Shown here: positions 822 through 30,971 of the stretch, piece after piece | Numbering within the stretch: the first letter of the stretch is position 1 | Layout: each line of letters starts with the position of its first letter | Origin: Bacteroidota bacterium | GTDB lineage: Bacteria > Bacteroidota > Bacteroidia > Chitinophagales > Chitinophagaceae | Direction of reading: 5' to 3' | NCBI GenBank assembly: GCA_028876035.1 | Contig: JAGWTK010000001.1 | Span: 1 to 41,165, forward strand | Length of the DNA: 41,165 bases | Program-made: the position numbers and the translations under genes | The notes under the pieces: model-generated | What the model was told of the DNA's origin: nothing | Databases searched by the model: none | Seen by the model: the letters and a program-made list of their open reading frames with translations, nothing else

Positions 822-1388
822 CTAAGTTGCCCAGGCTTTATCGCCTTTTTTGTAGTCGATACAACCCTCGTACTTTCCTGGAACTGCCACATAGCGCAGT
901 GCCTGGGTAGCCCCCTCTTTCGAGGTGAAATAACCGAAGAGGGTGAGCTGTTTCATCATCGTGAAATAGTGCGAAGGATCTTCCTTCTTCTTACTCTTCT
1001 GGTATTCCTTGGCTTCTTTATCGAGGGCTGTCAGGAACTTGGTTCGTTCTTCCGGCGTCGCTTCCATAAATGATTTGCCTGTTTCTTTCTTGCAGGCTTC
1101 GTCCAGTTTGGCAATGCCTTCGTGGAAGACTTTCTGATCGCCCTCTGTGTAGCAATCGTTCACCATCACGGTCATAAACTGGCCCACTTTTGCTGCTTTG
1201 GCACCCGGACTGCTGGTGGTGGGCAGGATAGTGTCCGCCACTTCATCCAGGAAGGCGGTGTCCTGGGCTGTGAATACCGCGCCGCCCACCGTTGGTTCAT
1301 TTTTACACCCGCTGAGCAGCAGTTCGCCGCCGATAACGGCACCGCCCGTAAGCACGGTAATCATTTTGAGAAGCTCTCTTCTGTCCAT
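822..1388 (-). CDS. gluconate 2-dehydrogenase subunit 3 family protein (TAT-signal lipoprotein, putative hitch-hiker small subunit of an FAD dehydrogenase complex)
   Basis: 188 aa. The N-terminus MDRRELLKMITVLTGGAVIGGELLLSGC has a twin-arginine motif plus an LSGC lipobox. It sits 19 nt downstream of the last GMC gene on the same strand. Size and placement are typical of the small subunit of GMC/FAD dehydrogenase complexes. Confidence 0.85.
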   Translation of the reverse strand: MDRRELLKMITVLTGGAVIGGELLLSGCKNEPTVGGAVFTAQDTAFLDEVADTILPTTSSPGAKAAKVGQFMTVMVNDCYTEGDQKVFHEGIAKLDEACKKETGKSFMEATPEERTKFLTALDKEAKEYQKSKKKEDPSHYFTMMKQLTLFGYFTSKEGATQALRYVAVPGKYEGCIDYKKGDKAWAT

Positions 1389-1407
1389 ATGGTTTGTTTT
1401 ATACTGT

Positions 1408-3135
1408 TTACAAGTTACCTTTTTTTAATTCATCCACCGCATGATTGGCGGCCCTTGCGGTGAGCGCCATAAATGTAAGCGATGGATTTTGCGTACCCGT
1501 CGACACCATGCAGGCGCCGTCGGTCACAAACACATTGCTGCAGCTGTGCAACTGGTTCCATTTGTTCAGCAGGGAGGTCTTGGGGTCCTTGCCCATTCTT
1601 ACGCCGCCCATCTCGTGTATATCGTTCCCGGGCCTGCGTCCATTATCGAATGCATTGATATTTTTACATCCGGCTGCTTCCAGCATTTCGGAACCTTGTT
1701 GCAGAAAGTCTTTCAACAGTTTTTCATCATTCGCATCATAGTCCACGTTGGCTACCAGCAAAGGAACACCCCAGTCATCTTTCTTATCCTTACTCAGCTT
1801 AACTTCATTTGATGCTTTCGGAATGGTTTCGCCCTGCATCATCATAAACACATTCCAGTAAGGTGCCGGTTCAGTTAAACTATCCTTCCAGGCGCCGCCG
1901 ATGCTGGCACCTTCCGAAGTATCACCCATGCGACCCCTGCCAGCACTGTAATGTACCATATAACCGCGTAAAAAGTCCATTTCCTGTTTGTAAACATTCC
2001 GGAAATTGGGCATCATCACAGCGGTGGGTCTCCTCCCATAATCAATCTTATCTTCAAAGCCTTCGATACTGGCGTTGATGTTTCCCCGGTAGTTATGGAA
2101 GGCGATATATTTACCCAGCAAGCCGTTATCGTTACCCAGTCCGTTTGGAAAGCGGTTCGACACCGAGTTCAGCAATACCAGGTTACTGTTCAAACATGCT
2201 GCATTCACAAAAATGATCCGGGCATAATACTCGAGCTCCTGTTTGCTGTGGGCATCTATCACCTTTACTCCAATCGCCTTATTTGTTTTCTCATCATACA
2301 TGATCGAATGCACCACGGAATCTGGTCGCAATGTGAGGTTACCCGTTTTGAACGCCCAGGGCAATGTTGACGAGTTGCTGCTGAAATAGCCGCCGAACGG
2401 GCATCCCCGGTAACAGATATTCCTGGCCTGGCACTGCCCGCGGCCCTGCTGCAAATGCACATCATTGGGTTTGGTCAGATGTGCGCACCTGCCCTGCACC
2501 ACATAGCGATCTTTATACTTTGCCAGGATTTTTTCCTGGATATGTTTCTCCGGACAATTCATTTCCCAGGGCGGCAAAAACTCACCATCGGGTAAGGTTT
2601 CTACGCCGTCTTTATTGCCACTAATGCCTGCGAACTTCTCCACATGACTGTACCAGGGTGCCAGGTCTTCGTAACGAATGGGCCAGTCAACCGCGAAACC
2701 ATCTCGGGCCGGACCTTCAAAATCATATTTACTCCAGCGCTGTGTTTGCCGTGCCCAAATCAAAGATTTTCCGCCTACCTGGTAGCCACGAATCCAATCA
2801 AAAGGTTTTTCCTGTATGTAGGGGTGTTCTTTGTCTTTCACGAAAAAATGCTGTGTAGCCTCATCAAACGCATAACAGCTATCAGCAATCGGGTTCTCCT
2901 GCGAAAGTTTTGTCGTGAGCCTTGTGCGATGCGGAAACTCCCAGATATCCATCGTAGTTGTTGGATAATCTTTGATATGCTTTACGTCGCGCCCACGTTC
3001 CAATACCAGGGTCTTCAATCCATGATCACACAATTCTTTGGCCGCCCAGCCGCCGCTGATCCCCGATCCGATCACGATCGCATCGTAGGTATTTTGCGCT
3101 TTTGCGCGGTTGTTGATATGTAACGAATCGGCCAT
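1408..3135 (-). CDS. GMC-family FAD dehydrogenase catalytic subunit, paralog 1 (most divergent)
   Basis: 575 aa. Starts MADSLHINN. Carries the FAD motif YDAIVIGSGISGGWAAKEL, the Cys motif CQARNICYRGCPFGGYF, and the C-terminal GMC region DIHEMGGVRMG...VFVTDGA...ELKKGNL. No signal peptide. Confidence 0.9.
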   Translation of the reverse strand: MADSLHINNRAKAQNTYDAIVIGSGISGGWAAKELCDHGLKTLVLERGRDVKHIKDYPTTTMDIWEFPHRTRLTTKLSQENPIADSCYAFDEATQHFFVKDKEHPYIQEKPFDWIRGYQVGGKSLIWARQTQRWSKYDFEGPARDGFAVDWPIRYEDLAPWYSHVEKFAGISGNKDGVETLPDGEFLPPWEMNCPEKHIQEKILAKYKDRYVVQGRCAHLTKPNDVHLQQGRGQCQARNICYRGCPFGGYFSSNSSTLPWAFKTGNLTLRPDSVVHSIMYDEKTNKAIGVKVIDAHSKQELEYYARIIFVNAACLNSNLVLLNSVSNRFPNGLGNDNGLLGKYIAFHNYRGNINASIEGFEDKIDYGRRPTAVMMPNFRNVYKQEMDFLRGYMVHYSAGRGRMGDTSEGASIGGAWKDSLTEPAPYWNVFMMMQGETIPKASNEVKLSKDKKDDWGVPLLVANVDYDANDEKLLKDFLQQGSEMLEAAGCKNINAFDNGRRPGNDIHEMGGVRMGKDPKTSLLNKWNQLHSCSNVFVTDGACMVSTGTQNPSLTFMALTARAANHAVDELKKGNL

Positions 3136-3219
3136 TGGCTTTTGGCAGTTGGCTTTTGGCTTGTTTCAGTGATTAATTCGTGTCTGGTTGCAAAAGGCTA
3201 ATAGCTAACAGCCAACAGC
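3136..3219. repeat. phase-locked degenerate heptad array (12 units) filling the GMC1/GMC2 spacer
   Basis: tggcttt|tggcagt|tggcttt|tggcttg|tttcagt|gattaat|tcgtgtc|tggttgc|aaaaggc|taatagc|taacagc|caacagc. The outer arms are imperfect reverse complements. Confidence 0.8.
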
Positions 3220-3222
3220 TTT

Positions 3223-4932
3223 TTACAGGTTTCCTTTCTTCAACTCGCTTACCGCAAAATCAGCGGCTCTTGCAGTAAGCGCCATATACGTTATTGATGG
3301 ATTCTGGCAGGCAGATGAAGCCATGCAGGCACCATCGGTGATGAATACATTTTTAGCATCGTGCACCTGGTTGTGGCCATTGAGCACCGATGTTTTTGGA
3401 TCCTTACCCATGCGGGCTGTTCCCATTTCATGGATACAGAAACCGGGTGCCGGCGCAGCGTCGTAGGTTGAAATATTTTTCAAACCAGCTTTCTCCAGCA
3501 TTTCGGCGGCACTGTTCATCATATCCTTGCGCATCGCTTTTTCATTTTCTTTGAACTCGCAGTCGATCACCAGCGTGGGCAGTCCCCATTTGTCTTTTTT
3601 GTTTTTATCGAGCGTTACGGTATTCTCATAATACGGAAGGTGTTCTCCCCAGGAGCCAATTCCGAATGTCCAGTTGCCTGGTTCGGTAAGTGAATCTTTA
3701 TAGGCTGCTCCCAAACCTTCTTCGATAGAAATTCTTCCTCTTGCAGCACCCCCCTGGTAACCAAACCCGCGTACATACTCTTTTTGTCTCGTAGCAGCGC
3801 TGATATTACGAAAGCGGGGAATATAAATTCCATTGGGCCGGCGACCGTAGGTGTATTTATCGGCAAACTCGTCTGACTCACCGTTCGCCCCTACGCCATA
3901 ATGATGATCCATCAGGTTATGTCCTACCTGTCCGCTGCTATTGCCAAACCCATTTGGAAATACATCCGATACTGAGCTTAATAGAATATGCGTTGTTCCG
4001 AGAGTAGATGCATTGATGAAAACTATCTTCGCGTAATACTCTTCGGTCTTCATGGTTTCCGAATCGAGTATGCGAACGCCTTTTGCCTTCTTCGTGTCTT
4101 TATCATACAATACTTCCAGCACAATCGAAAACGGACGCAGTGTTAGGTTACCTGTTTTCCTGGCAGCCGGTAAGGTAGCAGAGTTACTGCTGAAATAACC
4201 ACCAAAGGGGCAACCCTCGTGGCATTTGCTCCTGAACTGACAGGGACCACGTTCACCAAGCCTGGCCGTATGATTCGCAGATCGACCGATGATCATACGC
4301 CGGCCGTCTTTGAAACTTTTTTGAATTCTTTCTGCCACCTGCTTCTCCAGGCAGTTCATTTCCATCGCTGGCAGGTATTTTCCATCGGGCAGTTGCGGCA
4401 AATTCTCAATCGAGCCGCTGATGCCAACAAAGGGTTCTACATAATCATACCAGGGCGCAATGTCCTTGTAACGTATGGGCCAGTCAACACCGTGGCCGTC
4501 TTTTGCATTTGCTTCAAAATCGATATCGCTCCAGCGGTAACACTGGCGGCCCCAGGTTAAGCTTCTTCCGCCTACATGGTTACCCCTTACCCAATCGAAA
4601 GGCTTTACCTGTGTGTAGGGATTTTCTACGTCGTTCACAAAGAAATGCTTCGACACTTCGTTAAAGGCATAGCATTTACTTTGGATCGGACTTTCTTCCT
4701 GCACTTTCTTGCTTAAACTACCATGGTGATCCAATTCCCAGGGGTCTTTGTTAGTTCCTGTATAATCTTTCACATGCACTACATCTCTTCCTCTTTCCAA
4801 TACAAGCGTCTTCAATCCCTTTTCGCAAAGCTCTTTTGCCGCCCAGCCTCCGCTGATGCCGCTGCCAACAACGATCGCATCGTAGGTATTTTGTGTGATG
4901 GCTTTGTTGTTGATATTAAGTGAATCCCCCAT
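3223..4932 (-). CDS. GMC-family FAD dehydrogenase catalytic subunit, paralog 2
   Basis: 569 aa. Starts MGDSLNINN. Carries YDAIVVGSGISGGWAAKEL, CQFRSKCHEGCPFGGYF, and CIHEMGTARMG...VFITDGA...ELKKGNL. No signal peptide. Confidence 0.9.
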   Translation of the reverse strand: MGDSLNINNKAITQNTYDAIVVGSGISGGWAAKELCEKGLKTLVLERGRDVVHVKDYTGTNKDPWELDHHGSLSKKVQEESPIQSKCYAFNEVSKHFFVNDVENPYTQVKPFDWVRGNHVGGRSLTWGRQCYRWSDIDFEANAKDGHGVDWPIRYKDIAPWYDYVEPFVGISGSIENLPQLPDGKYLPAMEMNCLEKQVAERIQKSFKDGRRMIIGRSANHTARLGERGPCQFRSKCHEGCPFGGYFSSNSATLPAARKTGNLTLRPFSIVLEVLYDKDTKKAKGVRILDSETMKTEEYYAKIVFINASTLGTTHILLSSVSDVFPNGFGNSSGQVGHNLMDHHYGVGANGESDEFADKYTYGRRPNGIYIPRFRNISAATRQKEYVRGFGYQGGAARGRISIEEGLGAAYKDSLTEPGNWTFGIGSWGEHLPYYENTVTLDKNKKDKWGLPTLVIDCEFKENEKAMRKDMMNSAAEMLEKAGLKNISTYDAAPAPGFCIHEMGTARMGKDPKTSVLNGHNQVHDAKNVFITDGACMASSACQNPSITYMALTARAADFAVSELKKGNL

Positions 4933-4935
4933 GTT

Positions 4936-5005
4936 TAGTCGATAGTCTTTAGTCCGTAGTAGTTAGTCGTCAGCCTGTAGCTTGCAGCTTGCAGCCTGCG
5001 GCTAC
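4936..5005. repeat. phase-locked degenerate heptad array (10 units) filling the GMC2/GMC3 spacer
   Basis: tagtcga|tagtctt|tagtccg|tagtagt|tagtcgt|cagcctg|tagcttg|cagcttg|cagcctg|cggctac. It starts 4 nt from the GMC2 start codon and overlaps the GMC3 stop codon. Confidence 0.85.
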
Positions 5006-6714
5006 AAATTCCCTTTCTTCAACTCACCCACCGCATAATTCGCCGCCCTTGCCGTGAGCGCCATATAGGTAAGCGAAGGGTTAACGCAGGAGGCGGAGGT
5101 CATGCAGGCACCATCGGTTACAAATACATTTTTTGCATCCCATACCTGGTTGTGTTCATTGAGCACCGATGTTTTTGGATCGCGGCCCATGCGCGCACTG
5201 CCCATTTCGTGGATACCATCGCCGATCTCGTGACCAGTATCACGCGTTTTGATGTCTTTCACACCGGCGGCTTCCAGCATGGCGACTGCTTCGCTAACAA
5301 TATCTTTGCGCATCTTCAGTTCATTTTCCTGCAGCACTGCATCCATTGATAAAATGGGAAGCCCCCACTTATCTTTTCCTGTTTTATCCAAACTGATTTT
5401 ATTCTGGTGGTGCGGCAACACTTCGCCAAAACCACCGATATTCATTGTCCATGCACCAGGCTCCGTGAGCGCATCTTTGAATGCAGCGCCGATCGCCAGT
5501 TCTTCGACTGATCGGTTATAACCTTGTCTGGCTGCACCACCCTGGTAACCAAATCCACGCAGGTAGTCGCGTTTGTCGCCATTGATGTTTACGAACCGGG
5601 GAATATAGATACCGTTTGCGCGGCGACCATAATAGTATTTGTCTTCATAACCCTCTACCATGCCCGATGCACCGAGGTTATAGTGATGGTCCATGATATT
5701 GTGACCCAGTTCCCCGCTGCTGCTCCCTAAACCATCGGGCCAGATATCGGTGGCCGAATTCATCAATACCCAGGCACTGTTAAGGGCAGATGCATTCACG
5801 AAAACAATCTTCGAATAGAATTCGTAGGTCTTGTTGTTCTCTGCATCCATCACTTCTACACCCCTGGCTTTCTTCTTGTCTTTATCATACAGAATTTTCG
5901 ACACGATGCTCCAGGGACGGATAGTGAGATTACCCGTCGCCTTTGCCGCGGGCAAGGTAGAAGATTGCGTACTGAAATACCCGCCGAAGGGACATCCTTC
6001 CCAGCAACGGTTTCTGAACTGGCAATTGGTTCTGCCCTTATGCGGCACCGTTAGATTGGCCACACGGCCGATGATCATGTGTCGTTCGCCTTTCCACTTG
6101 TCTTTTATGCGCGCCGCTACATCCTTCTCCACACAAGTCATGTCCATCGGTGGCAGGAATTGACCATCGGGCAGGTGTTTGATGCCTTCCAGTGAGCCAC
6201 TCACACCAATATGCTTTTCTACATGATCATACCAGGGTGCAATGTCTTTATAACGGATGGGCCAATCGATTGCCCAGCCATCTTTTGCATTGGCTTCAAA
6301 GTCGAGATCACTCCAGCGATAGCTTTGCCTGCCCCATAAAATAGATCGACCACCCAACTGATAAGCGCGCCACCATTTAAAAGGTTTCTCTTCGTAATAA
6401 GGCGCTTCGCTGTCTTTCGCCCAATAGTTGATAATGGGCTCCGACTTACCCCAGGTGCGGGCAATCACCGGGCGATCTTTGAGATCTGCGAGCGGGGTTG
6501 TACCACGATGGGGAAAGTCCCAGGGATCTTTATTAGCCGATGCGTAATCTTTGACGTGCTCAAAATTGCGACCGCGTTCCAGCATCAGGACTTTTAATCC
6601 CTGTTCGCACAATTCTTTCGCTGCCCAACCACCACTGATACCCGAACCGATGACGATCGCATCGTAGGTTTGCTGCGTTGTAGCGCTGTTGTTGATATGG
6701 AGTGTGTCCGACAT
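5002..6714 (-). CDS. GMC-family FAD dehydrogenase catalytic subunit, paralog 3
   Basis: 570 aa. Starts MSDTLHINN. Carries YDAIVIGSGISGGWAAKEL, CQFRNRCWEGCPFGGYF, and GIHEMGSARMG...VFVTDGA...ELKKGNL. No signal peptide. Confidence 0.9.
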   Translation of the reverse strand: MSDTLHINNSATTQQTYDAIVIGSGISGGWAAKELCEQGLKVLMLERGRNFEHVKDYASANKDPWDFPHRGTTPLADLKDRPVIARTWGKSEPIINYWAKDSEAPYYEEKPFKWWRAYQLGGRSILWGRQSYRWSDLDFEANAKDGWAIDWPIRYKDIAPWYDHVEKHIGVSGSLEGIKHLPDGQFLPPMDMTCVEKDVAARIKDKWKGERHMIIGRVANLTVPHKGRTNCQFRNRCWEGCPFGGYFSTQSSTLPAAKATGNLTIRPWSIVSKILYDKDKKKARGVEVMDAENNKTYEFYSKIVFVNASALNSAWVLMNSATDIWPDGLGSSSGELGHNIMDHHYNLGASGMVEGYEDKYYYGRRANGIYIPRFVNINGDKRDYLRGFGYQGGAARQGYNRSVEELAIGAAFKDALTEPGAWTMNIGGFGEVLPHHQNKISLDKTGKDKWGLPILSMDAVLQENELKMRKDIVSEAVAMLEAAGVKDIKTRDTGHEIGDGIHEMGSARMGRDPKTSVLNEHNQVWDAKNVFVTDGACMTSASCVNPSLTYMALTARAANYAVGELKKGNL

Positions 6715-6812
6715 TGGCTTTTGGCTATTGGCTGTTAGCTTGTTTACGTTACAAATTCCTGTTTTTGTCTCCTACGGGCTAAGAGCCAACAGCTAATAGC
6801 CAACTGCTTCCT
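6715..6812. repeat. phase-locked degenerate heptad array (14 units) filling the GMC3/GMC4 spacer
   Basis: tggcttt|tggctat|tggctgt|tagcttg|...|gctaaga|gccaaca|gctaata|gccaact|gcttcct. The TGGCT-type arm and the AGCCA-type arm are imperfectly complementary. Confidence 0.8.
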
Positions 6813-8629
6813 CACAAATTGCCTTTCTTCAACTCTTCCACCGCATGATTCGCCGCTCTTGCAGTGAAAGCCATATAAGTAAGTGAAGGATTAACGCAAG
6901 AGGCAGAGGTCATGAATGATCCATCGGTAACGAATACATTCGGTGCATCCCATACCTGGTTCCATTTGTTGAGGACCGATGTTTTTGGATCGGCACCCAT
7001 ACGTGCAGAACCCATTTCGTGAATACCGCGACCAAGCGTACCATCACCTTCACGGCCTTTCACGTCTTTAACACCGGCGGCTTCCAGCATTTCGATGGCA
7101 TCGGCCACCATATCCTTGCGCATTTTCTTTTCGTTCTCTTTGTATTCAACATCCATCGCGAGTACAGGCAGACCCCATTTGTCGAGACGTTGTTTACCAT
7201 TTTTATCGGGAACCGGTTTGGTACCCAGGTCGAGACCAGTCACCGGATCTTTGTAAGGTTCAGTCTTATCGCCGTACAATTCTTTGTCGATGTACACGCG
7301 GTTCTCGTGGTATGGTAATGTTTCACCAAAGCCACCGATATTCATCGTCCAGGAGCCCGGTTCTGTGAGTGCATCTTTGAAAGCACCACCAATCACCAGT
7401 TCTTCCAGTGAACGGTTATAACCTTGCCGGCTCGCACCGCCCTGGTAGCCAAAGCCACGCAGGTAATCGCGTTTATCACCAAAGAAATTGCGGTAACGCG
7501 GAATGTAAATGCCATTCGCACGGCGACCGAAATAGTATTTGTCTTCGTATCCTTCCACACGACCCGCAGCGCCTACACCGAGGTGGTGGTCCATGATATT
7601 GTGACCGAGCTCACCACTGCTGCTACCCAATCCATCGGGCCAGATATCGGTAGCGGATTGCATCAGTATCCAGGCGCTGTTGAGGGTAGAGGCGTTCAGG
7701 AAAATGATCTTTGCGGTATAGGTATATGTCTTGTTGGTTTCTGCATCGAGTACTTCTACACCAGTTGCTTTTTTCTTGTCTTTGTCGTAGAGGATTTTAG
7801 TTACAATGCTCCAGGGGCGCAGCTTCAGGTTGCCCGTTGCCATGGCGGCCGGAAGGGTAGAAGACTGGGTGCTGAAATACGCACCGAACGGACAACCCAG
7901 CCAGCACTTGTTGCGGAACTGGCAATTGGTTCTTCCCTCATGCGGCACCGTTAGATTGGCGGTACGACCGATGATCATCGAACGATCCTTAAATTTTTCT
8001 TTGACACGCTTTGCTACATCCTTTTCTACGCAGTTCATATCCATCGGCGGAAGAAACTGTCCGTCGGGCAATTGCGGTAAGCCTTCTTTGGATCCACTGA
8101 TCCCGGCGAATTTCTCTGCATAATCGTACCAGGGTGCAATTTCTTTATAGCGAACGGGCCAGTCGATCCCAACACCTTCTTTGGCATTTGCTTCAAAGTC
8201 CCAGTCACTCAGGCGATAGCTCTGGCGACCCCACATGAGCGAACGACCGCCTACATGGTAACCCCGGAACCAGTCGAACCGTTTGATTTCGGTATACGGA
8301 CTGTCCTTATCGCTGCACCAGTAGTCGAGGTTGGTTTCATTGAGCGGATAATCGCGTTTCAACACGGGATAATCATGGATCATCTCCTGCGTACGTCCGC
8401 CCCTATGCGGGAACTCCCAGGGATCTTTGGTGGCATTCACGTAATCCTTCACGTGTTTGATATCTCGTCCGCGTTCCAGCATCAATACCTTCAGGCCTTT
8501 TTCGGTCAGCTCTTTTGCAGCCCAGCCGCCGCTGATACCGGATCCGATAACGATGGCATCGAAGCTGGTTTGCTCGGCAGCGTTGGTATTGATGTTAACT
8601 GGTTTCTGTAGGGAAGTATCTCCTGGCAT
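6812..8629 (-). CDS. GMC-family FAD dehydrogenase catalytic subunit, paralog 4 (long form with ~30-aa insertion)
   Basis: 605 aa. Carries FDAIVIGSGISGGWAAKEL, CQFRNKCWLGCPFGAYF and GIHEMGSARMG...VFVTDGS. It has an extra segment, ELYGDKTEPYKDPVTGLDLGTKPVPDKNGKQRL (about nt 7187-7282), that paralogs 1-3 lack. Confidence 0.9.
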   Translation of the reverse strand: MPGDTSLQKPVNINTNAAEQTSFDAIVIGSGISGGWAAKELTEKGLKVLMLERGRDIKHVKDYVNATKDPWEFPHRGGRTQEMIHDYPVLKRDYPLNETNLDYWCSDKDSPYTEIKRFDWFRGYHVGGRSLMWGRQSYRLSDWDFEANAKEGVGIDWPVRYKEIAPWYDYAEKFAGISGSKEGLPQLPDGQFLPPMDMNCVEKDVAKRVKEKFKDRSMIIGRTANLTVPHEGRTNCQFRNKCWLGCPFGAYFSTQSSTLPAAMATGNLKLRPWSIVTKILYDKDKKKATGVEVLDAETNKTYTYTAKIIFLNASTLNSAWILMQSATDIWPDGLGSSSGELGHNIMDHHLGVGAAGRVEGYEDKYYFGRRANGIYIPRYRNFFGDKRDYLRGFGYQGGASRQGYNRSLEELVIGGAFKDALTEPGSWTMNIGGFGETLPYHENRVYIDKELYGDKTEPYKDPVTGLDLGTKPVPDKNGKQRLDKWGLPVLAMDVEYKENEKKMRKDMVADAIEMLEAAGVKDVKGREGDGTLGRGIHEMGSARMGADPKTSVLNKWNQVWDAPNVFVTDGSFMTSASCVNPSLTYMAFTARAANHAVEELKKGNL

Positions 8630-8650
8630 AGTTATATTCTTTTAATCGTT

Positions 8651-8727
8651 ATTGCTATTGGCTATTGGCCATTGGCAATTAGCTATTGGCAAAAAGCTAA
8701 CAGCCAAATGCTAAAAGCTCACGGCTA
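8651..8727. repeat. phase-locked degenerate heptad array (11 units) in the GMC4/GMC5 spacer
   Basis: attgcta|ttggcta|ttggcca|ttggcaa|ttagcta|ttggcaa|aaagcta|acagcca|aatgcta|aaagctc|acggcta. It ends on the GMC5 stop codon. Confidence 0.85.
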
Positions 8728-21736: not shown

Positions 21737-21763
21737 TCTATTATCTTTTTTGTAGATAATAGA
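21737..21763. promoter_or_regulatory. candidate operator palindrome in divergent promoter region
   Basis: Perfect 9-bp inverted repeat tctattatc (21737-21745) / gataataga (21755-21763) with a 9-nt T-rich spacer. It lies between the Nudix regulator start (21673) and the TolB-like gene start (21809). Confidence 0.35.
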
Positions 21764-21808
21764 AATTTTTGTTTAGATTCGTTGATATTTCACTAAAAAC
21801 GCTGCCAT

Positions 21809-22735: not shown

Positions 22736-22758
22736 CGAACAGCATTAAAATAAGCCGT

Positions 22759-25847: not shown

Positions 25848-26906
25848 CTACGGATTCTTTGTGCCAGTTGCCTGTGCGGCTGGTGCTTCGCTCATGGTCT
25901 TATAAAAATTATCCATATCGGGTGCCAGTACTACCTGCACACCTTTGTCACCGCTACCGCTGGCAGACATAGATTCATTCTGTGCAACCACTTTAACTTT
26001 AGGAAGACCAGTGGCAAGAAGCGCATTGGCTACTGCATTCTGACGCTGCCATGCCATTGCCTTGCGTGCACGTGCACTGGTAATTGCTGATGACTTCCGT
26101 TTACCTGAAGAATAAGCTGTTGAACGCGTTTCCCTGCTACCAGAAGATTTGGCGGTGCTGCGACTGGCAGATGACTTGTGCGTCGTTGCACTGCGTTTGG
26201 TAGAATAAGAACGCATGCGGGTATGATTAGCACTGGACGATGCACGGCTACCGGTGGTATTGGTAACCGTATTATCGTTATCAGAGGGGTTGCCGCTTCG
26301 GGCAGTGTTGTTCGTATTAGATGAAGAGGAACTGCTGTTCATGTCGCTGCCGGAAGACATCCCTGACGCCGTCATCGTTCCGTTTGCGGTTTCCAGATCG
26401 GCCACACTTACATCAATACCTTCCCGACCTTTTACATATTCGCCAATGCTGTTTACCAGTTCCTTTCCTTTTGTGGTGAGCACGGCTGAATTTCCTTTGA
26501 AGAGATTTTTCTCGTTCAAATTAATCATCACCTTCGCATCGGTCTGCGCGATGTCCTGATCACTTAGTCCGGCAGAAGCCAGCGTAGTACTCAACTCACC
26601 TTTGATTTGATCAGCAGTGGTTTTTGCCTTGTTTACATTGTCGGAATAGAAAGCGACATTCTTTTGCAAACTCGCATTGGTGTTATTCGCCGTTTCGATC
26701 GACTGCTGCAGTTCCGAATTTTTTTGGTTAACTGCATTGAGGTTTTGCGTTAACGTGCTGTCTTTTTGTGCGAGTGTAGTACTGTCTGTTCTGAGCCTTG
26801 CTACTTCATCCTGCGACCTATGGTATTTTTTAGAAGAGACGCAGCTGGTGAGCAATATGCCCGCGGACAGGATGGCACCCGCCGTTTGCATAGTTGTTGT
26901 TTTCAT
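25848..26906 (-). CDS. lipoprotein with coiled-coil region and a degenerate OmpA-like C-terminal domain split by a Ser/Thr/Asn-rich insert
   Basis: The ORF extends to 26948. ATG 26906 gives MKTTTMQTAGAILSAGILLTSC (lipobox). LFKGNSAVLTTKGKELVNSIGEYV and AWQRQNAVANALLATGLP resemble OmpA-domain segments. They are separated by a ~110-aa low-complexity stretch (SSGSDMNSSSSSSNTNN...SSASRSTAKSSGS). Confidence 0.6.
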   Translation of the reverse strand: MKTTTMQTAGAILSAGILLTSCVSSKKYHRSQDEVARLRTDSTTLAQKDSTLTQNLNAVNQKNSELQQSIETANNTNASLQKNVAFYSDNVNKAKTTADQIKGELSTTLASAGLSDQDIAQTDAKVMINLNEKNLFKGNSAVLTTKGKELVNSIGEYVKGREGIDVSVADLETANGTMTASGMSSGSDMNSSSSSSNTNNTARSGNPSDNDNTVTNTTGSRASSSANHTRMRSYSTKRSATTHKSSASRSTAKSSGSRETRSTAYSSGKRKSSAITSARARKAMAWQRQNAVANALLATGLPKVKVVAQNESMSASGSGDKGVQVVLAPDMDNFYKTMSEAPAAQATGTKNP

Positions 26907-27062
26907 GGTTTTACATTTTAGAAACTGTATTTGACAAGAGATTTTCAACCTGTCTGTTTCAATTTTGCGGCCATGAACATTTTAGCGGATTTCGGGCTAA
27001 TGCTGAGTAAGAAAATTCCGTTTTCGGTGAAATTTTGAGGAACTGGATGCACATCAGGGCAC

Positions 27063-27087
27063 AAAAAAAGCGGCTTGCGGCCGCTTT
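27063..27087 (-). terminator. intrinsic terminator after the DUF1080 tandem
   Basis: Stem aaagcggc (27067-27074) / gccgcttt (27080-27087), loop ttgcg. The A-run at 27063-27069 gives a T-tract on the minus strand. It lies 18 nt downstream of the stop at 27105. Confidence 0.5.
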
Positions 27088-27104: not shown

Positions 27105-27869
27105 TTATAGTTCTCTTAACCAAATATTGCGGTAACTGATGGGCTCGCTCTTGTCGCCATGTGCCTGTAGCTTGATGGGTGAAGCGCCATGCTTTTTATA
27201 TTCCGGTGCACCGATATAGGGCGTATCACCTTTTAACACCGCATTGTTCTGAACAAGAACACCATTGAGCATCACTGTAGCCCTGGCTGCTGACAACAGT
27301 GTGCCATCTTCATTAAATCGCGGTGCGGTCCAGATAATATCATAGGTCTGCCATTCACCCGGCTTCCGGCAGGCATTCACCAATGGCGGATATTGTTTGT
27401 ACAGGCTTCCTGCCTGTCCGTTCACATACGTGGTGTTTTTGTAATTGTCGAGCACCTGCACTTCATACCCACCGGCTCCCCAGGGCAGGGCTGCAAGAAA
27501 AATTCCACTGTTACCACGGGCCTGCCCGCTTCCGGTAATATAAGAGGGAATCTGGTATTCAATATGCAGCTGGTAATCCATGAAACGCCTTTTCGTTTGC
27601 ATGTCGCCGTTAGCTTTGTTAACCGTCATCACACCTTTTGCCACCGTCCATTTTGAGGTGGAACTGGTGTCCTTTGTGGGCACCCATTCATCCATATTCT
27701 TACCATCAAAAAGAACAATCGCGTCGGAGGGTGGCTTGCCGTAGGCTGCGCCTGGGGTCACTACTTTTGGAACGGGTGAATAATACTCGGTTTCTTCCGG
27801 TTTTGTTTGGGAAAACAGGGCTGTAGCCCACAGGGAGGCGGCAGCACGCATAAAACAAGATCTGTTCAT
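27105..27869 (-). CDS. DUF1080 / 3-keto-disaccharide hydrolase family protein, secreted
   Basis: The ORF extends to 27905. ATG 27869 gives MNRSCFMRAAASLWATALFSQ (signal peptide). Carries LFDGKNMDEW...GQARGNSGIFL...KLQAHGDKSEPISYRNIWLREL. Confidence 0.85.
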   Translation of the reverse strand: MNRSCFMRAAASLWATALFSQTKPEETEYYSPVPKVVTPGAAYGKPPSDAIVLFDGKNMDEWVPTKDTSSTSKWTVAKGVMTVNKANGDMQTKRRFMDYQLHIEYQIPSYITGSGQARGNSGIFLAALPWGAGGYEVQVLDNYKNTTYVNGQAGSLYKQYPPLVNACRKPGEWQTYDIIWTAPRFNEDGTLLSAARATVMLNGVLVQNNAVLKGDTPYIGAPEYKKHGASPIKLQAHGDKSEPISYRNIWLREL

Positions 27870-27948
27870 AAATAGACGTTGGTGGGTTGATATAAAAAGA
27901 GACACCGAAGGGTGCCTCTCAAATTAGGTAAAATTTTCCTGTAGCAGC

Positions 27949-28719
27949 TTATAGTTCCCTTACCCAGATATTCCGGAAACTAATCGGTTCGCTCTTATCG
28001 CCATGGGCCTGCAATTTAATCGGAGCGGGTCCATGCGCTTTGTATTGTGGCGTACCGATGTATACTGTCTTTCCCTTCAGTTCGGTGTGGTTTTGCAAGA
28101 GTACACCGTTGTGGATGACCGTTACATAGGCCGCCGACTTCAGCGTACCATCTGAATTAAACCTTGGAGCCGTCCAGATGATATCGTACACCTGCCATTC
28201 GCCGGGCTTTTTGCAGGCATTCGCCAGTGGTATCGATTGTTTGTAGATGCTGCCGGTTTGGCCATTCACATACGTACTGTTGTTGTAACAGTCGAGCACC
28301 TGGATTTCGTAACCATCATCGCCAGGCCCGGTAGAAGCCAGAAACACACCGCTGTTACCACGTGCCTGTCCGCTTCCCGTGATGTTCTCCGGGATCTTCC
28401 ATTCGATATGTAACTGGTAATCTGTAAAGCTCTTCTTCGTTTGAATATTACCGGTAGTCTTATCCACCGTCATCACGCCGTCTGCCACTTTCCATCCGGC
28501 TGGGCTACCCGGCTTATTCACCGATTCCCATTGATCCAGGTTTTTACCATCGAACAAAACCACGGCATCTGAAGGTGCATCCGCCGTTGAATTACCCGGT
28601 GTTACTACTTTCGGAACGGGAGAATATACTTCCGTTGCTTTAGGGTCGCCCTGTGGCTGTTGTGCATAGCTGGCAGCTGCCATCATAGTAGCAGCGAATA
28701 ATAAACTTGTTCTTTTCAT
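27949..28719 (-). CDS. DUF1080 / 3-keto-disaccharide hydrolase family protein, secreted (tandem paralog)
   Basis: 256 aa with signal peptide MKRTSLLFAATMMAAASYAQ. It is collinear with 27105..27869 (LFDGKNLDQW...GQARGNSGVFL...KLQAHGDKSEPISFRNIWVREL). Confidence 0.85.
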   Translation of the reverse strand: MKRTSLLFAATMMAAASYAQQPQGDPKATEVYSPVPKVVTPGNSTADAPSDAVVLFDGKNLDQWESVNKPGSPAGWKVADGVMTVDKTTGNIQTKKSFTDYQLHIEWKIPENITGSGQARGNSGVFLASTGPGDDGYEIQVLDCYNNSTYVNGQTGSIYKQSIPLANACKKPGEWQVYDIIWTAPRFNSDGTLKSAAYVTVIHNGVLLQNHTELKGKTVYIGTPQYKAHGPAPIKLQAHGDKSEPISFRNIWVREL

Positions 28720-28739
28720 ATCCTTCGTTTTCTTTTCGG

Positions 28740-30071
28740 TTATACGGTAGGTAATTTGTACCCGTTGTGGTATTCTTTCAGCAGGTATTGTTTGTTGATT
28801 GCTTCATCGGTGAAACGTTCTTTGGTTTTATCCCACACCAGCTTTTTACCACTGCGGAAGGCGATATTGCCCATTTGCGCAACGGTGGCCACATGAGCAC
28901 CTGCCTGGATAGAGCAATGCAAATCTTCTGTCTTCCTTGATTTAACCACACTTACAAAGTTTTCCCAGTGCTTATCAAGGCCGTTATCAGAAGGTGCTGC
29001 AAAGGGCTTGCTCACCTTGTTCTTACTTTGTTTTTCCTCGATCACTTCCCAGCCACCACGGTTCAGCACCAGGGTGCCATTGTTGCCAATGAATGCAATA
29101 CCATGGTCGCGGCCGTACGAGCCGTTATCAATACCCATCGCTGAATCCCATACCAGGTTGAAGCCATCGAATTCATACAGCGTTGTAAGTGTATCCGGTG
29201 TTTCTTCGTACAAATCGGGATACGCGAAGCGCCCGCCCAGTGCAGCCACCGATTTTGGAATCGGCGACTTCATACCCAGCAGGCCATAGTCGAGCAGGTG
29301 CACACCCCAGTCGGTCATCAATCCGCCGGCATAATCCCAGAACCAGCGGAAATTGAAATGGAAGCGGCTCGAATTAAACGGTCGGATCGGCGCAGGTCCC
29401 AGCCACTGTTTGTAATCTACGCCTTCGGGCGGCGCACTGTCTGCTACTACCGGACCGGGTTTCATCCAGCCCTGGTAGCACCAAACCTTTACGGTGCGGA
29501 TATTTCCGAGCTGACCTGTTTGCACAAAATCCACCGCGTCCCTGAAGTGCTGCTGACTGCGTTGCCACTGGCCGGCCTGCACTACTTTTTTATAGCGTTG
29601 CTGCGCTGCCACCATGCGACGGCATTCTTCAATTGAATTGCCAACAGGTTTTTCTACATATACATCTTTCCCCGCTTCGCAGGCGTGGATCATGATGAGT
29701 GCATGCCAGTGATCGGGTGTACCGATTATCACCGCATCGATATCTTTTTGCGCCAGCAATTTTCTGTAATCATCATAGGTCTTTATGCCACTGGTGGAAA
29801 CGCCTGCCTTGCTCAACTCTCCCAGGCGGTTTGCGATAACCGATTTGTCGACATCGCAAACAGCAACTAGGTTTACGCCGGGGACTTTCATGGCGGCTTT
29901 CACATTGGCCCAGCCCATTCCATTAATGCCAATCGCACCAATATTCAATTGGTCGGAAGGCATAATCCGGTTTTTGAAATAGGCAAAAGCCTGGTTATCG
30001 AAAGCAGAAGCAAGCGCGCCAGCACCCAGCAATACCGACGATTGTTGAAGAAACTTTTTTCTTGAGTTCAT
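28740..30071 (-). CDS. Gfo/Idh/MocA family oxidoreductase with TAT-type signal
   Basis: 443 aa. N-terminus MNSRKKFLQQSSVLLGAGALASAFDNQAFA. Rossmann segment LNIGAIGINGMG. EKP motif DVYVEKPVGN. Confidence 0.9.
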   Translation of the reverse strand: MNSRKKFLQQSSVLLGAGALASAFDNQAFAYFKNRIMPSDQLNIGAIGINGMGWANVKAAMKVPGVNLVAVCDVDKSVIANRLGELSKAGVSTSGIKTYDDYRKLLAQKDIDAVIIGTPDHWHALIMIHACEAGKDVYVEKPVGNSIEECRRMVAAQQRYKKVVQAGQWQRSQQHFRDAVDFVQTGQLGNIRTVKVWCYQGWMKPGPVVADSAPPEGVDYKQWLGPAPIRPFNSSRFHFNFRWFWDYAGGLMTDWGVHLLDYGLLGMKSPIPKSVAALGGRFAYPDLYEETPDTLTTLYEFDGFNLVWDSAMGIDNGSYGRDHGIAFIGNNGTLVLNRGGWEVIEEKQSKNKVSKPFAAPSDNGLDKHWENFVSVVKSRKTEDLHCSIQAGAHVATVAQMGNIAFRSGKKLVWDKTKERFTDEAINKQYLLKEYHNGYKLPTV

Positions 30072-30077
30072 AGCAGG

Positions 30078-30971
30078 TTATTTAAGCAGGTTTTTTTTCA
30101 TGTAGGCAGCACTTGTTTTGATGCAGTCGAACACCGGGTGACGGTATTGCTCCTGCTCAACAAATACATAGTCAACTCCTGCCCTGGCCTGGTGTTTAAA
30201 AATCGACTTCCAGTCGATCACCCCATTGCCCACTTCGCAGGTTTGTCCTTTGGGTTTACCTTGTGTTTCTTTCTCCATGTCTTTGATATGCCACATCGCA
30301 AACCGGCCGGGATATTTGTTGAACCAGGTGGCGGGATCCTGCCCGGCATACACCACCCAGTAAATATCCATTTCGAATTTCACCAGGTTAGGATCGGTAT
30401 TCTTCAGCAGGTAATCATATACCGTTGCGCCGTCCATCGGCTCGAATTCAAAATTATGGTTGTGGTAACCAGTGATCAGTCCGGCTGACTTGCTCAGTTC
30501 ACCGCCTTTGTTCAGTCGCTCTGCAATGCGTTTGAAATCATCCGGCGTCCTGTGTTTGTCATCCATATACGGGATCACGACGTATTTATGTCCCAGCGTA
30601 TGCGCATCTTCCAGTAAACGCTTCCAGCTGTCCCAGTTATAATCTGCCCCGTAGGTCATATCTGCAATACCATAGTGGCCACTGGGTGTAGCGAGGCCAT
30701 GCTTTTTGAGGATAGCGGAGAATTCCTTCACGGATTTACCGAAGAAGGTACGGTCTGCACTGTTGTAACCATACAATTCAAGGGTGCGATAGCCCGCGGA
30801 TGCCACCTGCCCGATAGTCGCACTGAGGTCTTTGGTTTTTGCAATTTCGTCGCGGATAGTGTAAAGCTGGAGACCAAGGTCTTTGTGCATTTTAAACAGG
30901 CCTTTGGTATCAACCATGAGCGCGGCAGCAAATACGGAGCTCTGCCGGATAAATGTTCTGCGGTTAAGCAT
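30078..30971 (-). CDS. TAT-exported sugar phosphate isomerase/epimerase-type TIM-barrel protein
   Basis: 297 aa. Twin-arginine signal MLNRRTFIRQSSVFAAALMV. Carries GYHNHNFEF, FEMDIYW and MWHIKDM, typical of the fold. It ends 6 nt upstream of the Gfo gene. Confidence 0.85.
   Translation of the reverse strand: MLNRRTFIRQSSVFAAALMVDTKGLFKMHKDLGLQLYTIRDEIAKTKDLSATIGQVASAGYRTLELYGYNSADRTFFGKSVKEFSAILKKHGLATPSGHYGIADMTYGADYNWDSWKRLLEDAHTLGHKYVVIPYMDDKHRTPDDFKRIAERLNKGGELSKSAGLITGYHNHNFEFEPMDGATVYDYLLKNTDPNLVKFEMDIYWVVYAGQDPATWFNKYPGRFAMWHIKDMEKETQGKPKGQTCEVGNGVIDWKSIFKHQARAGVDYVFVEQEQYRHPVFDCIKTSAAYMKKNLLK

Follow-up and report, generated by a model that had tools for sequence, protein, structure and literature searches.

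A route by which glycosides are broken down without hydrolysis has been worked out only recently, in Agrobacterium and in gut Bacteroidales. In the Agrobacterium operon, oxidation, elimination, hydration and reduction follow one another (PMC10628242). The dehydrogenase GlycDH of Rhizobium sp. GIN611 oxidises O- and C-glucosides at C3, AtOGE eliminates 3-keto-beta-glucosides, AtHYD hydrates the glucal, for which the evidence is preliminary, and a Gfo oxidoreductase has been proposed as the 3-keto-glucose reductase (PMC10628242). In the Alistipes and Bacteroides systems, where enzyme roles were assigned by nuclear magnetic resonance, AL1/BT1 eliminate 3-keto-beta-glucosides, and BT2157/AL2 eliminates 3-keto-alpha-glucosides and then hydrates the glucal (bioRxiv 10.1101/2024.03.25.586180). 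Further loci are described in the portions of two reports drawn on here: LacABC and a DUF1080 protein of Caulobacter have fitness phenotypes on lactose, salicin and raffinose, a LacABC-type dehydrogenase of Pedobacter has a phenotype as well (PMC9007349), and homologues of BT2156-59 are found in clusters with LacABC in Caulobacter and are important to Pedobacter and Echinicola for their use of glycosides (PMC8121099). Here, a 41,165-nucleotide stretch of a Chitinophagaceae genome (assembly GCA_028876035.1, contig JAGWTK010000001.1, positions 1 to 41,165; hereafter the window) was compared with these systems. The comparison suggests, with a probability of roughly 75%, that the window carries a conserved Chitinophagaceae locus for a non-hydrolytic 3-keto-glycoside pathway, in which the set of oxidases is expanded.

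Homology and synteny show two divergent operons at the centre of this locus. A 12-kb minus-strand operon would encode an MFS permease, the TIM barrel TIM_A, five predicted GlycDH-type subunits and one escort subunit with a predicted twin-arginine translocation (TAT)/lipoprotein leader, and the divergent plus-strand operon a putative reductase, a glucal hydratase, a cytochrome c, a BT2157-type DUF1080 protein and a ThuA-domain protein. Membership in the 3-keto pathway, which a first-pass annotation of the DNA had proposed, is borne out by 49-64% identity to GlycDH, 67% to AtHYD and 44% to the Agrobacterium Gfo, and by matches at 1e-38 between TIM_C and AL1/BT1 and at 3e-42 between DUF1080_a and BT2157. 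The GlycDH, AtOGE, AtHYD and Gfo sequences were taken from Supplementary Table 6 of PMC10628242 as machine-read text, by which the identities are slight underestimates.

The inventory was based on a six-frame listing of open reading frames (ORFs) and on Pfam scans of all gene-sized ORFs in the window. Five proteins with GMC_oxred_N/C domains are encoded between 1408 and 10500, all on the minus strand. Three GFO_IDH_MocA proteins are found at 12974-14140 (Gfo_cyt), 22759-24162 (Gfo_TAT1) and 28740-30071 (Gfo_TAT2), four AP_endonuc_2 TIM barrels at 10633-11526 (TIM_A), 15180-16235 (TIM_hyd), 20011-20937 (TIM_B) and 30078-30971 (TIM_C), and three 3keto-disac_hyd (DUF1080) proteins at 16764-17480 (DUF1080_a), 27105-27869 (DUF1080_b) and 27949-28719 (DUF1080_c). 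Gluconate_2-dh3, ThuA, cytochrome c, MFS_1 and a NUDIX+NrtR_WHD regulator occur as single copies. The scans, which are the hidden Markov model check that the first-pass annotation had called for, reproduce all of its family calls and counts, and they also agree with its claim that the 30 kb are free of glycoside hydrolases (GH) and SusC/D pairs: no gene-sized ORF within 822-30971 matched a GH or SusC/D family, and the closest GH is a GH9-CE4 fusion at 37260-39908, outside that region. Three ORF starts were moved, GMC5 to 10500 (ATG), TIM_hyd to 15180 and DUF1080_b to 27869, because heptamer repeats in the spacers yield false N-terminal extensions; the TTG extension of GMC5 to 10566, for example, is a translated heptamer repeat.

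To establish which genes belong together, TIM_hyd was used to scan a genome collection, which gave 80 loci, almost all from Chitinophagaceae, and the proteins of the window were then compared with these by tblastn. The core locus is also carried by Puia sp. P3, Pollutibacter soli and Flavihumibacter petaseus. The related loci, together with a T9SS CHU_C-domain protein encoded in the window, assign the latter to the Bacteroidota, family Chitinophagaceae. Since many contigs end within the locus, the locus counts are lower bounds. The conserved core reads [TIM_C-like]-small-GMC(1-3)-TIM_A-[MFS] <> Gfo_cyt-TIM_hyd-cytc-DUF1080_a-[ThuA]. A GMC homologue was found in 56 of the 80 loci, and the small subunit beside the GMC genes in 45. 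In 13 of the 49 loci with enough flanking sequence, the core is followed downstream by orthologs of the operon at 27105-30971, and a TIM_C-family gene stands directly after the small subunit, inside the GMC operon, in 21 of 41. The gene layout is far from chance, with a GMC tandem repeat of ~1.8-1.9 kb and a core order that recurs in most of the 80 loci. The window is thus composed of one conserved divergent locus (822-18258), a recurrent neighbour (27105-30971), an independent, locally regulated unit (20954-24162) and the orphan TIM_B. It had been supposed that four modules share a single island-level logic; instead, synteny resolves three kinds of unit, and the NrtR/propeller/Gfo genes lie away from the GMC locus elsewhere. 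Acquisition of the cluster as a horizontally transferred genomic island is also rejected, since GC content (0.42-0.51) and skew run without a break across the cluster borders and synteny of the core is kept throughout the family.

The most prominent part of the core is the array of GMC dehydrogenases on the minus strand. GMC1 (1408-3135; 49% identity to GlycDH; FAD and a predicted 3Fe-4S cluster), GMC2 (3223-4932; 59%; cysteines 231/237/241) and GMC3 (5002-6714; 64%) are read as catalytic paralogs of glycoside 3-dehydrogenase, and GMC4 (6812-8629; 64%) and GMC5 (8725-10500; 63%) as catalytic subunits of the same enzyme type. GlycDH (AEX01166.1) aligns with all five at full length, over ~550 amino acids and with 535-747 bits (BLASTP). 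A further ~30 amino acids are inserted in both GMC4 and GMC5. Every one of the five proteins carries the flavin (FAD) motif GSGISGG, and C-x5-C-x3-C is conserved in all of them (C235, C241 and C245 in GMC1) and in GlycDH, as would be expected from the earlier remark that this oxidation is FAD/Fe-S linked. We take this spacing to be that of the 3Fe-4S cysteines of the FAD-dependent glucose dehydrogenase (FAD-GDH) of B. cepacia (C212/218/222). The 3Fe-4S cluster of the latter enzyme is documented (PMC6719666). A signal peptide is absent from all five proteins. The small "hitchhiker" subunit (822-1388, minus strand; Gluconate_2-dh3, Pfam 9e-42), the sole copy in the window, begins 19 bp downstream of GMC1, and its N-terminus, MDRRELLK...LLLSGC, combines a twin-arginine signal with a lipobox. 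The five catalytic genes have a single escort gene beside them, and the cytochrome c gene is likewise single. The spacers of the minus-strand operon measure 19-132 bp, and no strong terminator precedes the hairpin at 735-765 (minus strand; 12 bp stem and T-run), which closes the operon; this hairpin ranks above every other terminator-like site in 600-20000, and none comparable is situated between the GMC genes. NCBIfam offers no specific model for any of four kinds of protein here: GMC, small subunit, DUF1080 and ThuA.

Comparison of the copies indicates that the array is old. Any two of the five paralogs share 50-85% identity, and even GMC4 and GMC5, which are 84.5% identical, differ with Ka 0.097 and Ks 1.24 (non-synonymous and synonymous divergence; Ka/Ks ~0.08). 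Ks is saturated for most pairs, and saturated or >=1.2 for every pair; every copy is therefore old and under purifying selection. The copies can also be recognised individually in other genomes. GMC1-type orthologs are 63-76% identical in 11 other loci and at most 56% identical to the other paralog types, GMC2-type orthologs are 73-87% identical in loci L009, L064 and L082, and GMC3-type orthologs are 75-86% identical in L010, L046, L058 and L082, a copy in L055 (71%) being less clearly assigned. The GMC4/5 type is the universal copy, adjoining TIM_A in nearly all related loci. One GMC copy was seen in the flanks of 36 loci, two in 14, three in five and at least five in one. The full series recurs in this last locus, L082, situated on a 6.5-Mb contig of a Chitinophagaceae metagenome-assembled genome (MAG), in the collinear order GMC5, 4, 3, 2, 2', 1, with identities of 89% (GMC5), 85% (GMC4), 86% (GMC3), 87% (GMC2), 73% (GMC2') and 84% (GMC1); the divergent operon also adjoins this series. 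The collinearity implies that the array has been inherited within a sub-lineage and is not an accident of the genome from which the window comes. In L082, the GMC2 ortholog at 16975-18690 is apparently frameshifted, appearing as two overlapping tblastn pieces with no called gene, which may reflect a pseudogene or an assembly error of the MAG.

Upstream of the dehydrogenases in the same operon, TIM_A (10633-11526, minus strand; Pfam AP_endonuc_2) is a TAT-exported, metal-dependent TIM barrel present in 62 of the 80 loci. In 30 homologues R7, R8, E174, D210, H236 and E273 are invariant, the four acidic and histidine positions being the metal-site set and the arginines the twin-arginine signal. 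TIM_A has no BLAST match to AtOGE, whose YHNHDFE motif is replaced by QMELLN. In sequence and fold it is most like Hyi/OtnI, hydroxypyruvate and 2-oxo-tetronate isomerases and ketose 3-epimerases, and it also resembles YcjR, the 3-keto-glucoside 4-epimerase. The predicted model has a mean confidence (pLDDT) of 75, and its fold matches in the PDB are generic (epimerases, isomerases and C-glycoside lyases) at a template modelling (TM) score of ~0.65; DgpB-C resembles it at fold level only, at ~0.6. Our best guess, held with low confidence and resting on sequence and a predicted model, is that TIM_A may be a periplasmic epimerase or isomerase acting on 3-keto-glycosides.

The operon opens with the MFS permease (11563-12786, minus strand; Pfam MFS_1), whose position is kept in 41 of the 80 loci; it matches models of aromatic-acid/H+ symporters, and these only weakly. 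It is proposed here as the importer of the keto-sugar product. The spacer between MFS and Gfo_cyt contains a promoter-like motif, TTAAATGTAATTTTTATTTTTTAT, at 12819-12842, where TAAATGTAATTTTTTATTTTTAAA is conserved at ~35 nt before the start codon of MFS. Of 62 related spacers, 31 have TAAATGTA / AAATGTAA at the equivalent site. The reverse complement holds TACATTTA, which resembles what we take to be the Bacteroidota -7 box, TAnnTTTG. We regard the motif as the probable promoter from which the long dehydrogenase operon is read. A scan for sigma-70 promoters was uninformative, as expected in Bacteroidota, with 26 sites against 24.7 expected.

The plus-strand operon (12974-18258) would supply the steps that follow cleavage. 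Gfo_cyt (12974-14140, plus strand), a cytoplasmic Gfo/Idh/MocA protein without signal peptide, is found in 75 of the 80 loci and shares 44% identity with its Gfo counterpart in the A. tumefaciens operon (BLAST E 2e-99; 2e-106 to PDB 3v5n). On this homology it is proposed as a putative 3-keto-glucose reductase; against the LgdA equivalog (NCBIfam NF052479, LevoglcsnDh) it scores 110.6 bits, below the cut-off of 650. TIM_hyd (15180-16235, plus strand), likewise without signal, is a cytoplasmic hydratase ortholog with 67% identity to AtHYD and a match at 8e-173 to PDB 8ro4, a "2-hydroxy-3-keto-glucal hydratase", and it is 79-89% identical across the 80 loci. The cytochrome c lipoprotein (16300-16710, plus strand; Pfam Cytochrom_C; 67 of 80 loci) has a single CLTCH motif for one haem and a lipoprotein leader ending in VAAC, and is proposed as the electron acceptor of the dehydrogenases. 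DUF1080_a (16764-17480, plus strand; Pfam 6e-54; 70 of 80 loci) is a secreted BT2157-type homologue, matching the BT2157 structures 8tda/8tde (BT2), as well as 8rr2 and 9fbe, at ~3e-42. E-x-Q and Q-x-H motifs are kept in all three DUF1080 proteins of the window, in agreement with the conserved Glu164/Gln166 and Gln273/His275 of BT2157 (bioRxiv 10.1101/2024.03.25.586180). The operon ends with a secreted ThuA-domain protein (17491-18258, plus strand; Pfam ThuA 4e-79, 266 bits), which follows DUF1080_a in 20 of the 80 loci. No ThuB-type (Gfo) partner adjoins it, its flanks being DUF1080_a and an ORF without family, and a ThuAB pairing was thus not found.

Several observations concern this operon and its surroundings. 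In nearly all relatives Gfo_cyt and TIM_hyd are immediate neighbours; here the ORF at 14263-15039 stands between them. This ORF has a weak DUF6090 match under the cut-off, a predicted membrane segment and heptamer-repeat spacers on both sides, and a homologue at the equivalent place occurs only in L010, at 47%. Downstream of ThuA, the ORFs 18378-18875 and 18912-19349 are small, with N-termini like signal peptides, and may be lineage-specific secreted proteins or non-genes. Together with 19400-19867 and 25848-26948, these three ORFs had no family match above the curated cut-off, and, the L010 homologue apart, none of the five has a conserved counterpart in the related loci. Identity to Agrobacterium/Rhizobium is unusually high for a comparison across phyla, up to 64% for the dehydrogenase and 67% for the hydratase, and just 44% for the reductase beside the hydratase; the pattern could stem from strong constraint, or from an old exchange between phyla that involved parts of the locus. 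Run SRR24111737 holds a near-identical 7.3-kb contig.

The recurrent neighbour is a minus-strand operon at 27105-30971 that encodes TIM_C, Gfo_TAT2, DUF1080_c and DUF1080_b and is closed by a terminator-like hairpin at 27067-27087 (minus strand). TIM_C (30078-30971, minus strand) is a TAT-exported homologue of the AL1/BT1/AtOGE-type lyases. It matches PDB 8tcd/8tcs/8tct, the Alistipes and Bacteroides 3-keto-beta-glucoside lyases, at full length with 1e-38 to 3e-37, and AtOGE with 2e-21 (PDB 8bvk) and with 26% identity at E 1e-20 (BLAST). Its motifs YHNHNFE and WHIKD align with YHNHDFE and IHAKD of AtOGE, of which the H134A and H189A variants are essentially inactive (PMC10628242). It is the only lyase of the AtOGE/AL1 type in the window. 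Gfo_TAT2 (28740-30071, minus strand), a TAT-type periplasmic Gfo, matches PDB 8tdf/8tdh (AL3/BT3) at 5e-34 over its N-terminal half only, and is, as judged from this similarity, a predicted distant relative of the BT2158/AL3 glycoside 3-dehydrogenases. DUF1080_c (27949-28719, minus strand) and DUF1080_b (27105-27869, minus strand; Pfam 6e-45) are secreted tandem paralogs of the 4qhz subfamily; DUF1080_b is 65% identical to DUF1080_c and 26% to DUF1080_a. PDB 4qhz is matched by DUF1080_c at 1.5e-93, and the BT2157 structures are not among the PDB matches of this protein at E <=1e-3. Scores against BT_2159_fam are weak (36-44 bits; cut-off 650), which does not point to a BT2159-type cytosolic Gfo, and no SusR/DUF6377 regulator was found in 27105-31123.

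From these assignments, the following course of events can be proposed. Once loaded in the cytoplasm with FAD and a 3Fe-4S cluster, a signal-less GMC subunit would cross the membrane by hitchhiking on the single twin-arginine escort. In the periplasm, the C3 hydroxyl of the non-reducing sugar of a glycoside would be oxidised, with electrons presumably passing from the GMC subunit to the cytochrome c lipoprotein and on to the aerobic respiratory chain. The 3-keto-glycoside would be cleaved by beta-elimination, which would free the aglycone or the sugar at the reducing end; TAT-exported metal TIM barrels of the TIM_C type may take the beta-anomers and the Sec-exported, Ca-dependent DUF1080 protein the alpha-anomers. 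Subsequently, 2-hydroxy-3-keto-glucal or 3-keto-glucose would be imported by the MFS permease, the glucal hydrated by TIM_hyd as the AtHYD ortholog, and the keto-sugar reduced to glucose by Gfo_cyt. The operon at 27105-30971 may provide a second, parallel periplasmic route on the BT2156-59 model, which would be redox-neutral, its tightly bound nicotinamide cofactor being recycled by reduction of the 3-keto-glucose product. The NrtR/propeller/Gfo_TAT1 unit and TIM_B would act independently of the pathway. It had been stated that nearly all of the enzymes are periplasmic; this describes the set in part, since the hydratase and the reductase, two key steps, are cytoplasmic, and the MFS importer links the two compartments.

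It is most likely that the five GMC paralogs differ in glycone or aglycone specificity. A more speculative proposal, which we consider less likely than not, goes further: the paralogs may form a "specificity panel" of interchangeable subunits that vie for a single TAT escort and a single cytochrome c, so that the substrate range would be set by swapping of oxidases rather than by a GH repertoire. According to the same proposal, TIM_A would add a new periplasmic reaction on 3-keto-glycosides, for which C4 or C2 epimerisation and 2,3-keto isomerisation are candidates, and would funnel non-gluco substrates to a common lyase.

A number of observations weigh against the pathway reading as a whole. 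An AtOGE/AL1-type lyase is absent from the GMC operon here, and the position at which relatives carry it holds just the terminator at 765-735. TIM_A, the most conserved partner of the dehydrogenase, is unlike any characterised 3-keto-glycoside lyase and is more isomerase- or epimerase-like. In the operon at 27105-30971, the DUF1080 pair falls in the uncharacterised 4qhz subfamily, the BT2157-like copy DUF1080_a sitting in the other locus, and against BT_2158_fam (NCBIfam NF058561; cut-off 750) Gfo_TAT2 scores 178.7 bits and Gfo_TAT1 108.2. Both of these "TAT-type" Gfo proteins read SRKKFLQQ, with R-K in place of R-R. No regulator or outer-membrane uptake system is visible for the core locus, and a comparison of 9-mers and palindromes across all intergenic regions gave heptamer repeats only, with no operator shared by the promoters of the blocks. 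That one escort serves five catalytic subunits is something that we infer. Finally, our analysis agrees with the first-pass annotation that the substrate range and the pairing of oxidase with lyase are not readable from the sequence.

The unit at 20954-24162 is informative on how the blocks relate to one another. Its regulator (20954-21673, minus strand; Pfam NrtR_WHD, AraR_C, NUDIX) is an NrtR/AraR-type Nudix protein with a winged helix-turn-helix domain, and in the spacer between it and the divergent propeller gene lies a candidate NrtR operator, the perfect palindrome CTATTATCT-N7-AGATAATAG (21738-21762). TATTRTCT-N7-AGAYAATA is found in 7 of 12 orthologous spacers examined, and both arms covary. 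The palindrome occurs once in the window, even with three mismatches allowed; it is confined to its own divergent spacer, and NrtR is therefore a local and not an island-wide regulator. The Nudix protein had earlier been counted among the parts of one island, a role that does not survive this result, as the sole conserved, covarying operator lies in its own spacer. The secreted beta-propeller ("TolB family", PD40; 21809-22735, plus strand; Pfam) is the partner of Gfo_TAT1; its model has a pLDDT of 89, and among PDB entries it is closest to 2ojh, which is an A. tumefaciens protein and is itself uncharacterised (TM 0.93, 45% identity). Gfo_TAT1 (22759-24162, plus strand; Pfam) is a TAT-type periplasmic Gfo/Idh/MocA protein with the leader motif SRKKFL, which matches DgpA1 at 2e-23 and AL3/BT3 at 7e-19 in the PDB. 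A metagenome scan with Gfo_TAT1 gave a further set of 80 loci (L083-L162), in which PD40 is directly upstream of the Gfo_TAT1 gene in ~35 and NrtR is divergently adjacent in ~17 of these; a GMC gene with the small subunit is nearby in one of the 80. NrtR, PD40 and Gfo_TAT1 form an independent unit with its own operator and without conserved link to the core, and the propeller with the periplasmic Gfo suggests an undescribed two-enzyme sugar module. TIM_B (20011-20937, plus strand; Pfam) is an orphan TAT-exported, IolI-like TIM barrel (PDB 1i60, IolI, at 3e-20) with no BLAST match to AtOGE; a homologue is present in none of 160 related loci, and it has no conserved neighbours.

These findings bear directly on the idea that the four modules are a single integrated, co-regulated island, in which the products of both oxidase chemistries would go to one shared set of lyases and hydrolases, with the Nudix regulator in control. 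All of the genes do lie inside 30 kb, the block at 27105-30971 stands beside the core in 13 of 49 relatives, the operon of GMC and small subunit includes a TIM_C-type lyase in 21 of 41 relatives, and the components of such clusters are interchangeable (Nasseri et al., bioRxiv 10.1101/2024.03.25.586180). However, the NrtR palindrome is single in the window and conserved only in its own spacer, the NrtR-PD40-Gfo_TAT1 genes are near GMC and the small subunit in 1 of 80 loci, TIM_B has a homologue in 0 of 160, the promoters of the blocks have no motif in common, and the region is broken up by separate terminators and by three unrelated genes over ~3 kb (Crp-like, DUF4386, coiled-coil), which together make an integrated island improbable. 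Still less probable is a scheme of incomplete oxidation rather than cleavage, in which the GMC array would consist of dehydrogenases for free sugars, polyols or sugar acids and the TIM barrels would be keto-sugar isomerases or epimerases. TIM_A is indeed like hydroxypyruvate/2-oxo-tetronate isomerases and ketose 3-epimerases, the Pfam family of the small subunit is named for gluconate 2-dehydrogenase, and the structures nearest to GMC1 are the large subunit of fructose dehydrogenase (3e-36) and B. cepacia FAD-GDH (5e-21), the pyranose oxidase structure following at 5e-6. The GMC proteins nevertheless score 535-747 bits against GlycDH and 78-128 bits against the fructose and glucose dehydrogenases, orthologs of glucal hydratase and reductase make sense only after glycosidic elimination, and the locus includes a BT2157-type DUF1080 protein.

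A more serious competitor accepts the same chemistry and assigns it another role, namely that the array deglycosylates or detoxifies natural-product glycosides (saponins, flavonoid O-/C-glycosides, thioglycosides, pseudo-sugars) rather than serving to feed on di- and oligosaccharides. We regard this as possible, with odds clearly below even. GlycDH came to light in work on the deglycosylation of ginsenosides, and the flavonoid glucosides that it oxidises are of both the O- and the C-type (PMC10628242), the AL/BT systems cleave glucosinolates and acarbose (bioRxiv 10.1101/2024.03.25.586180), no polysaccharide utilization locus or GH genes for polymer degradation accompany the locus, and the MFS permease weakly matches aromatic-acid/H+ symporter models. 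A nutritional role is favoured by the salvage branch, in which hydratase and reductase recover glucose for growth, and by fitness data from Caulobacter, Pedobacter and B. thetaiotaomicron, in which homologous loci have nutritional roles on lactose, trehalose, raffinose and salicin (PMC9007349; PMC8121099). The natural-product and nutritional roles are not mutually exclusive. The preferred reading remains a conserved locus for non-hydrolytic 3-keto-glycoside breakdown.

The export signals of the encoded proteins follow a regular pattern. The RR signals quoted for three of the TIM barrels, NRREALK, MNRRELIK and LNRRTFIR, can all be read at their N-termini, and the DUF1080 and ThuA proteins have Sec-type leaders. 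Export route corresponds to the expected type of cofactor: the GMC subunits (FAD and Fe-S) travel by TAT via the escort subunit, the periplasmic Gfo proteins (NAD(P)) and the periplasmic TIM barrels (Mn/Co) by TAT, and DUF1080 (Ca) and cytochrome c (haem, attached in the periplasm) by Sec. The signals are observed in the sequence, and the rationale would be that of TAT export with preloaded cofactor, an idea put forward previously that fits the observed signal pattern. TAT-type signals had also been called for the two Gfo proteins; the leader type is reasonable given that S/T-R-R-x-F-L is found in 77 of 80 Gfo_TAT1 homologues and a twin-arginine leader in at least 9 of 13 Gfo_TAT2 homologues, although here the signals are slightly atypical, with R-K. 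The S-R-K-K-F-L sites are located at 22783-22800 and 30048-30065 (minus strand), with codons AGA AAG / AGA AAA. The R-to-K change, alike in two unrelated paralogs of one genome, may represent a lineage-specific Tat tolerance.

Outside these genes, arrays of tandem repeats with a period of 7 nt fill the spacers at 3131-3229, 4934-5003, 6714-6808, 8650-8718 and 10508-10636, and further arrays are found at 14140-14303, 15031-15175, 31738-31795 and 35081-35441. The heptamers come in the flavours AGCYAAN, TTAGTCN, GTACNAA and AAGATRT and in both orientations. In 1.28 Mb of related Chitinophagaceae loci, 7 is the commonest period reported by TRF (157 arrays, with 62 more of period 14), and the arrays are uneven among genomes, from up to 18 per 21 kb to none. 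They recall the short tandemly repeated repetitive (STRR) heptamers of heterocystous cyanobacteria. Two 56-nt inverted repeats, 31738-31793 and 35386-35441, which are 89% complementary and partly heptamers, bracket a 3.6-kb segment that contains an ArsC-like gene, a secreted protein and a PKD/CHU_C surface protein of the type IX secretion system (T9SS), with no recombinase gene adjoining. The segment could be invertible or mobile, or the repeats could be just matching repeat-rich spacers. At 35440-37205 (minus strand) follows a pair unrelated to the locus, MbnP-like and MbnH/MauG-like, the latter a di-haem peroxidase type with two CxxCH motifs; it adjoins the GH9-CelD_N-CE4 fusion (37260-39908) and an IS-type integrase (39915-41102).

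The functional reading of the first-pass annotation is largely right, and it is not new. The density of these genes, which had been described as unusual, is not so for such loci, and the concept is already in print, as far as the relevant sections of the reports indicate (PMC8121099, PMC9007349, PMC10628242). A literature search gave no relevant account of a glycoside utilization locus, of ThuA/ThuB or of glucoside 3-dehydrogenase (G3DH) in Chitinophaga, Pedobacter or Flavobacterium. What the present comparison contributes is that the respiratory-linked version of the route is a conserved, often enlarged locus in Chitinophagaceae MAGs from many environmental metagenomes. Standard annotation masks it under "GMC family oxidoreductase", "TIM barrel protein", "hydroxypyruvate isomerase" and "TolB family protein". 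With its paralogs, the array amounts to a natural experiment on the substrate specificity of glycoside 3-dehydrogenases, enzymes that are of interest for regioselective C3 oxidation and for direct-electron-transfer biosensors. It is relevant, too, to the question of whether a single TAT hitchhiker is able to carry more than one kind of partner. If confirmed, the match of export and cofactor would furnish an annotation rule for periplasmic sugar-oxidising systems, by which proteins with FAD and Fe-S, NAD(P) or Mn/Co are exported via TAT and Ca- and haem-proteins via Sec.

Among the systems described to date, more distant analogies are given by ThuAB, DgpA/DgpBC, CarA/CarBC and LgdA/LgdB, with which the window shares C3 oxidation followed by TIM-barrel elimination, and the ThuA domain. 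Several of these had been cited as precedents together with the Agrobacterium and Bacteroidota routes. Direct comparison supports the latter two; CarA/CarBC, LgdA/B and ThuAB are distant analogies only, the comparison with each having come out negative. Compared with ThuAB of Sinorhizobium/Agrobacterium, the ThuA protein here is secreted and without ThuB. No homologues of CarC/DgpB or PuCGE-alpha were detected in the window (for PuCGE-alpha, no BLAST match), so that it does not group with CarBC/DgpBC, and GlycDH itself shares ~20% identity with the CarA-type oxidases (PMC10628242). The FAD-GDH of B. cepacia (gamma-alpha-beta) and the fructose dehydrogenase of Gluconobacter have in common with the window a GMC subunit with 3Fe-4S, a TAT hitchhiker and a cytochrome c acceptor (PMC6719666). 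They differ in a multi-haem membrane cytochrome and in acting on free sugars, whereas the window has a mono-haem lipoprotein and proposed glycoside substrates, the similarity being E 1e-21 to 1e-36.

The closer relatives can be compared block by block. The BT2156-BT2160/AL1-AL5 systems resemble the operon at 27105-30971 in having a TIM-barrel lyase, a TAT Gfo and DUF1080, all periplasmic; the operon differs in that its DUF1080 pair is of the 4qhz type and in lacking a BT2159-type Gfo and a SusR-like/DUF6377 regulator. In the lacABC locus of Caulobacter crescentus, as set out in the parts of the reports used here, the DUF1080 protein is CCNA_01705, accompanied by a transporter, two "epimerases" and a reductase (Arellano 2010; PMC9007349; PMC8121099). 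By published description, this locus and those of Pedobacter sp. GW460-11-11-14-LB5 and Echinicola contain the same families, with a GMC dehydrogenase, its small subunit and a cytochrome c beside DUF1080, two TIM-barrel "epimerases", a Gfo reductase and a transporter, and share periplasmic, respiratory-linked oxidation with the window, which differs in its multi-copy dehydrogenase array, none being described in the relevant sections of those accounts (PMC9007349; PMC8121099). The nearest counterpart is the Agrobacterium/Rhizobium GlycDH-AtOGE-AtHYD-Gfo operon: the window has orthologs of its dehydrogenase, hydratase and reductase and the same four-step logic, the Cys motif CQFRNKC..GCPFG of GlycDH is also carried by the dehydrogenases of the window, and the TAT escort is common to both at the level of the family. 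The host here is a member of the Bacteroidota, five tandem dehydrogenases take the place of one, and the dehydrogenase operon has no AtOGE ortholog, TIM_C (26%) being encoded at a distance of 17 kb. Additional components of the window are TIM_A, a BT2157-type DUF1080 protein, a mono-haem cytochrome c lipoprotein, a secreted ThuA protein and an MFS permease, arranged as a divergent pair of operons. Its distinctive features are the inherited five-to-six-copy GlycDH array on one escort, the conserved TIM_A, the 4qhz-type DUF1080 pair and the pattern of export.

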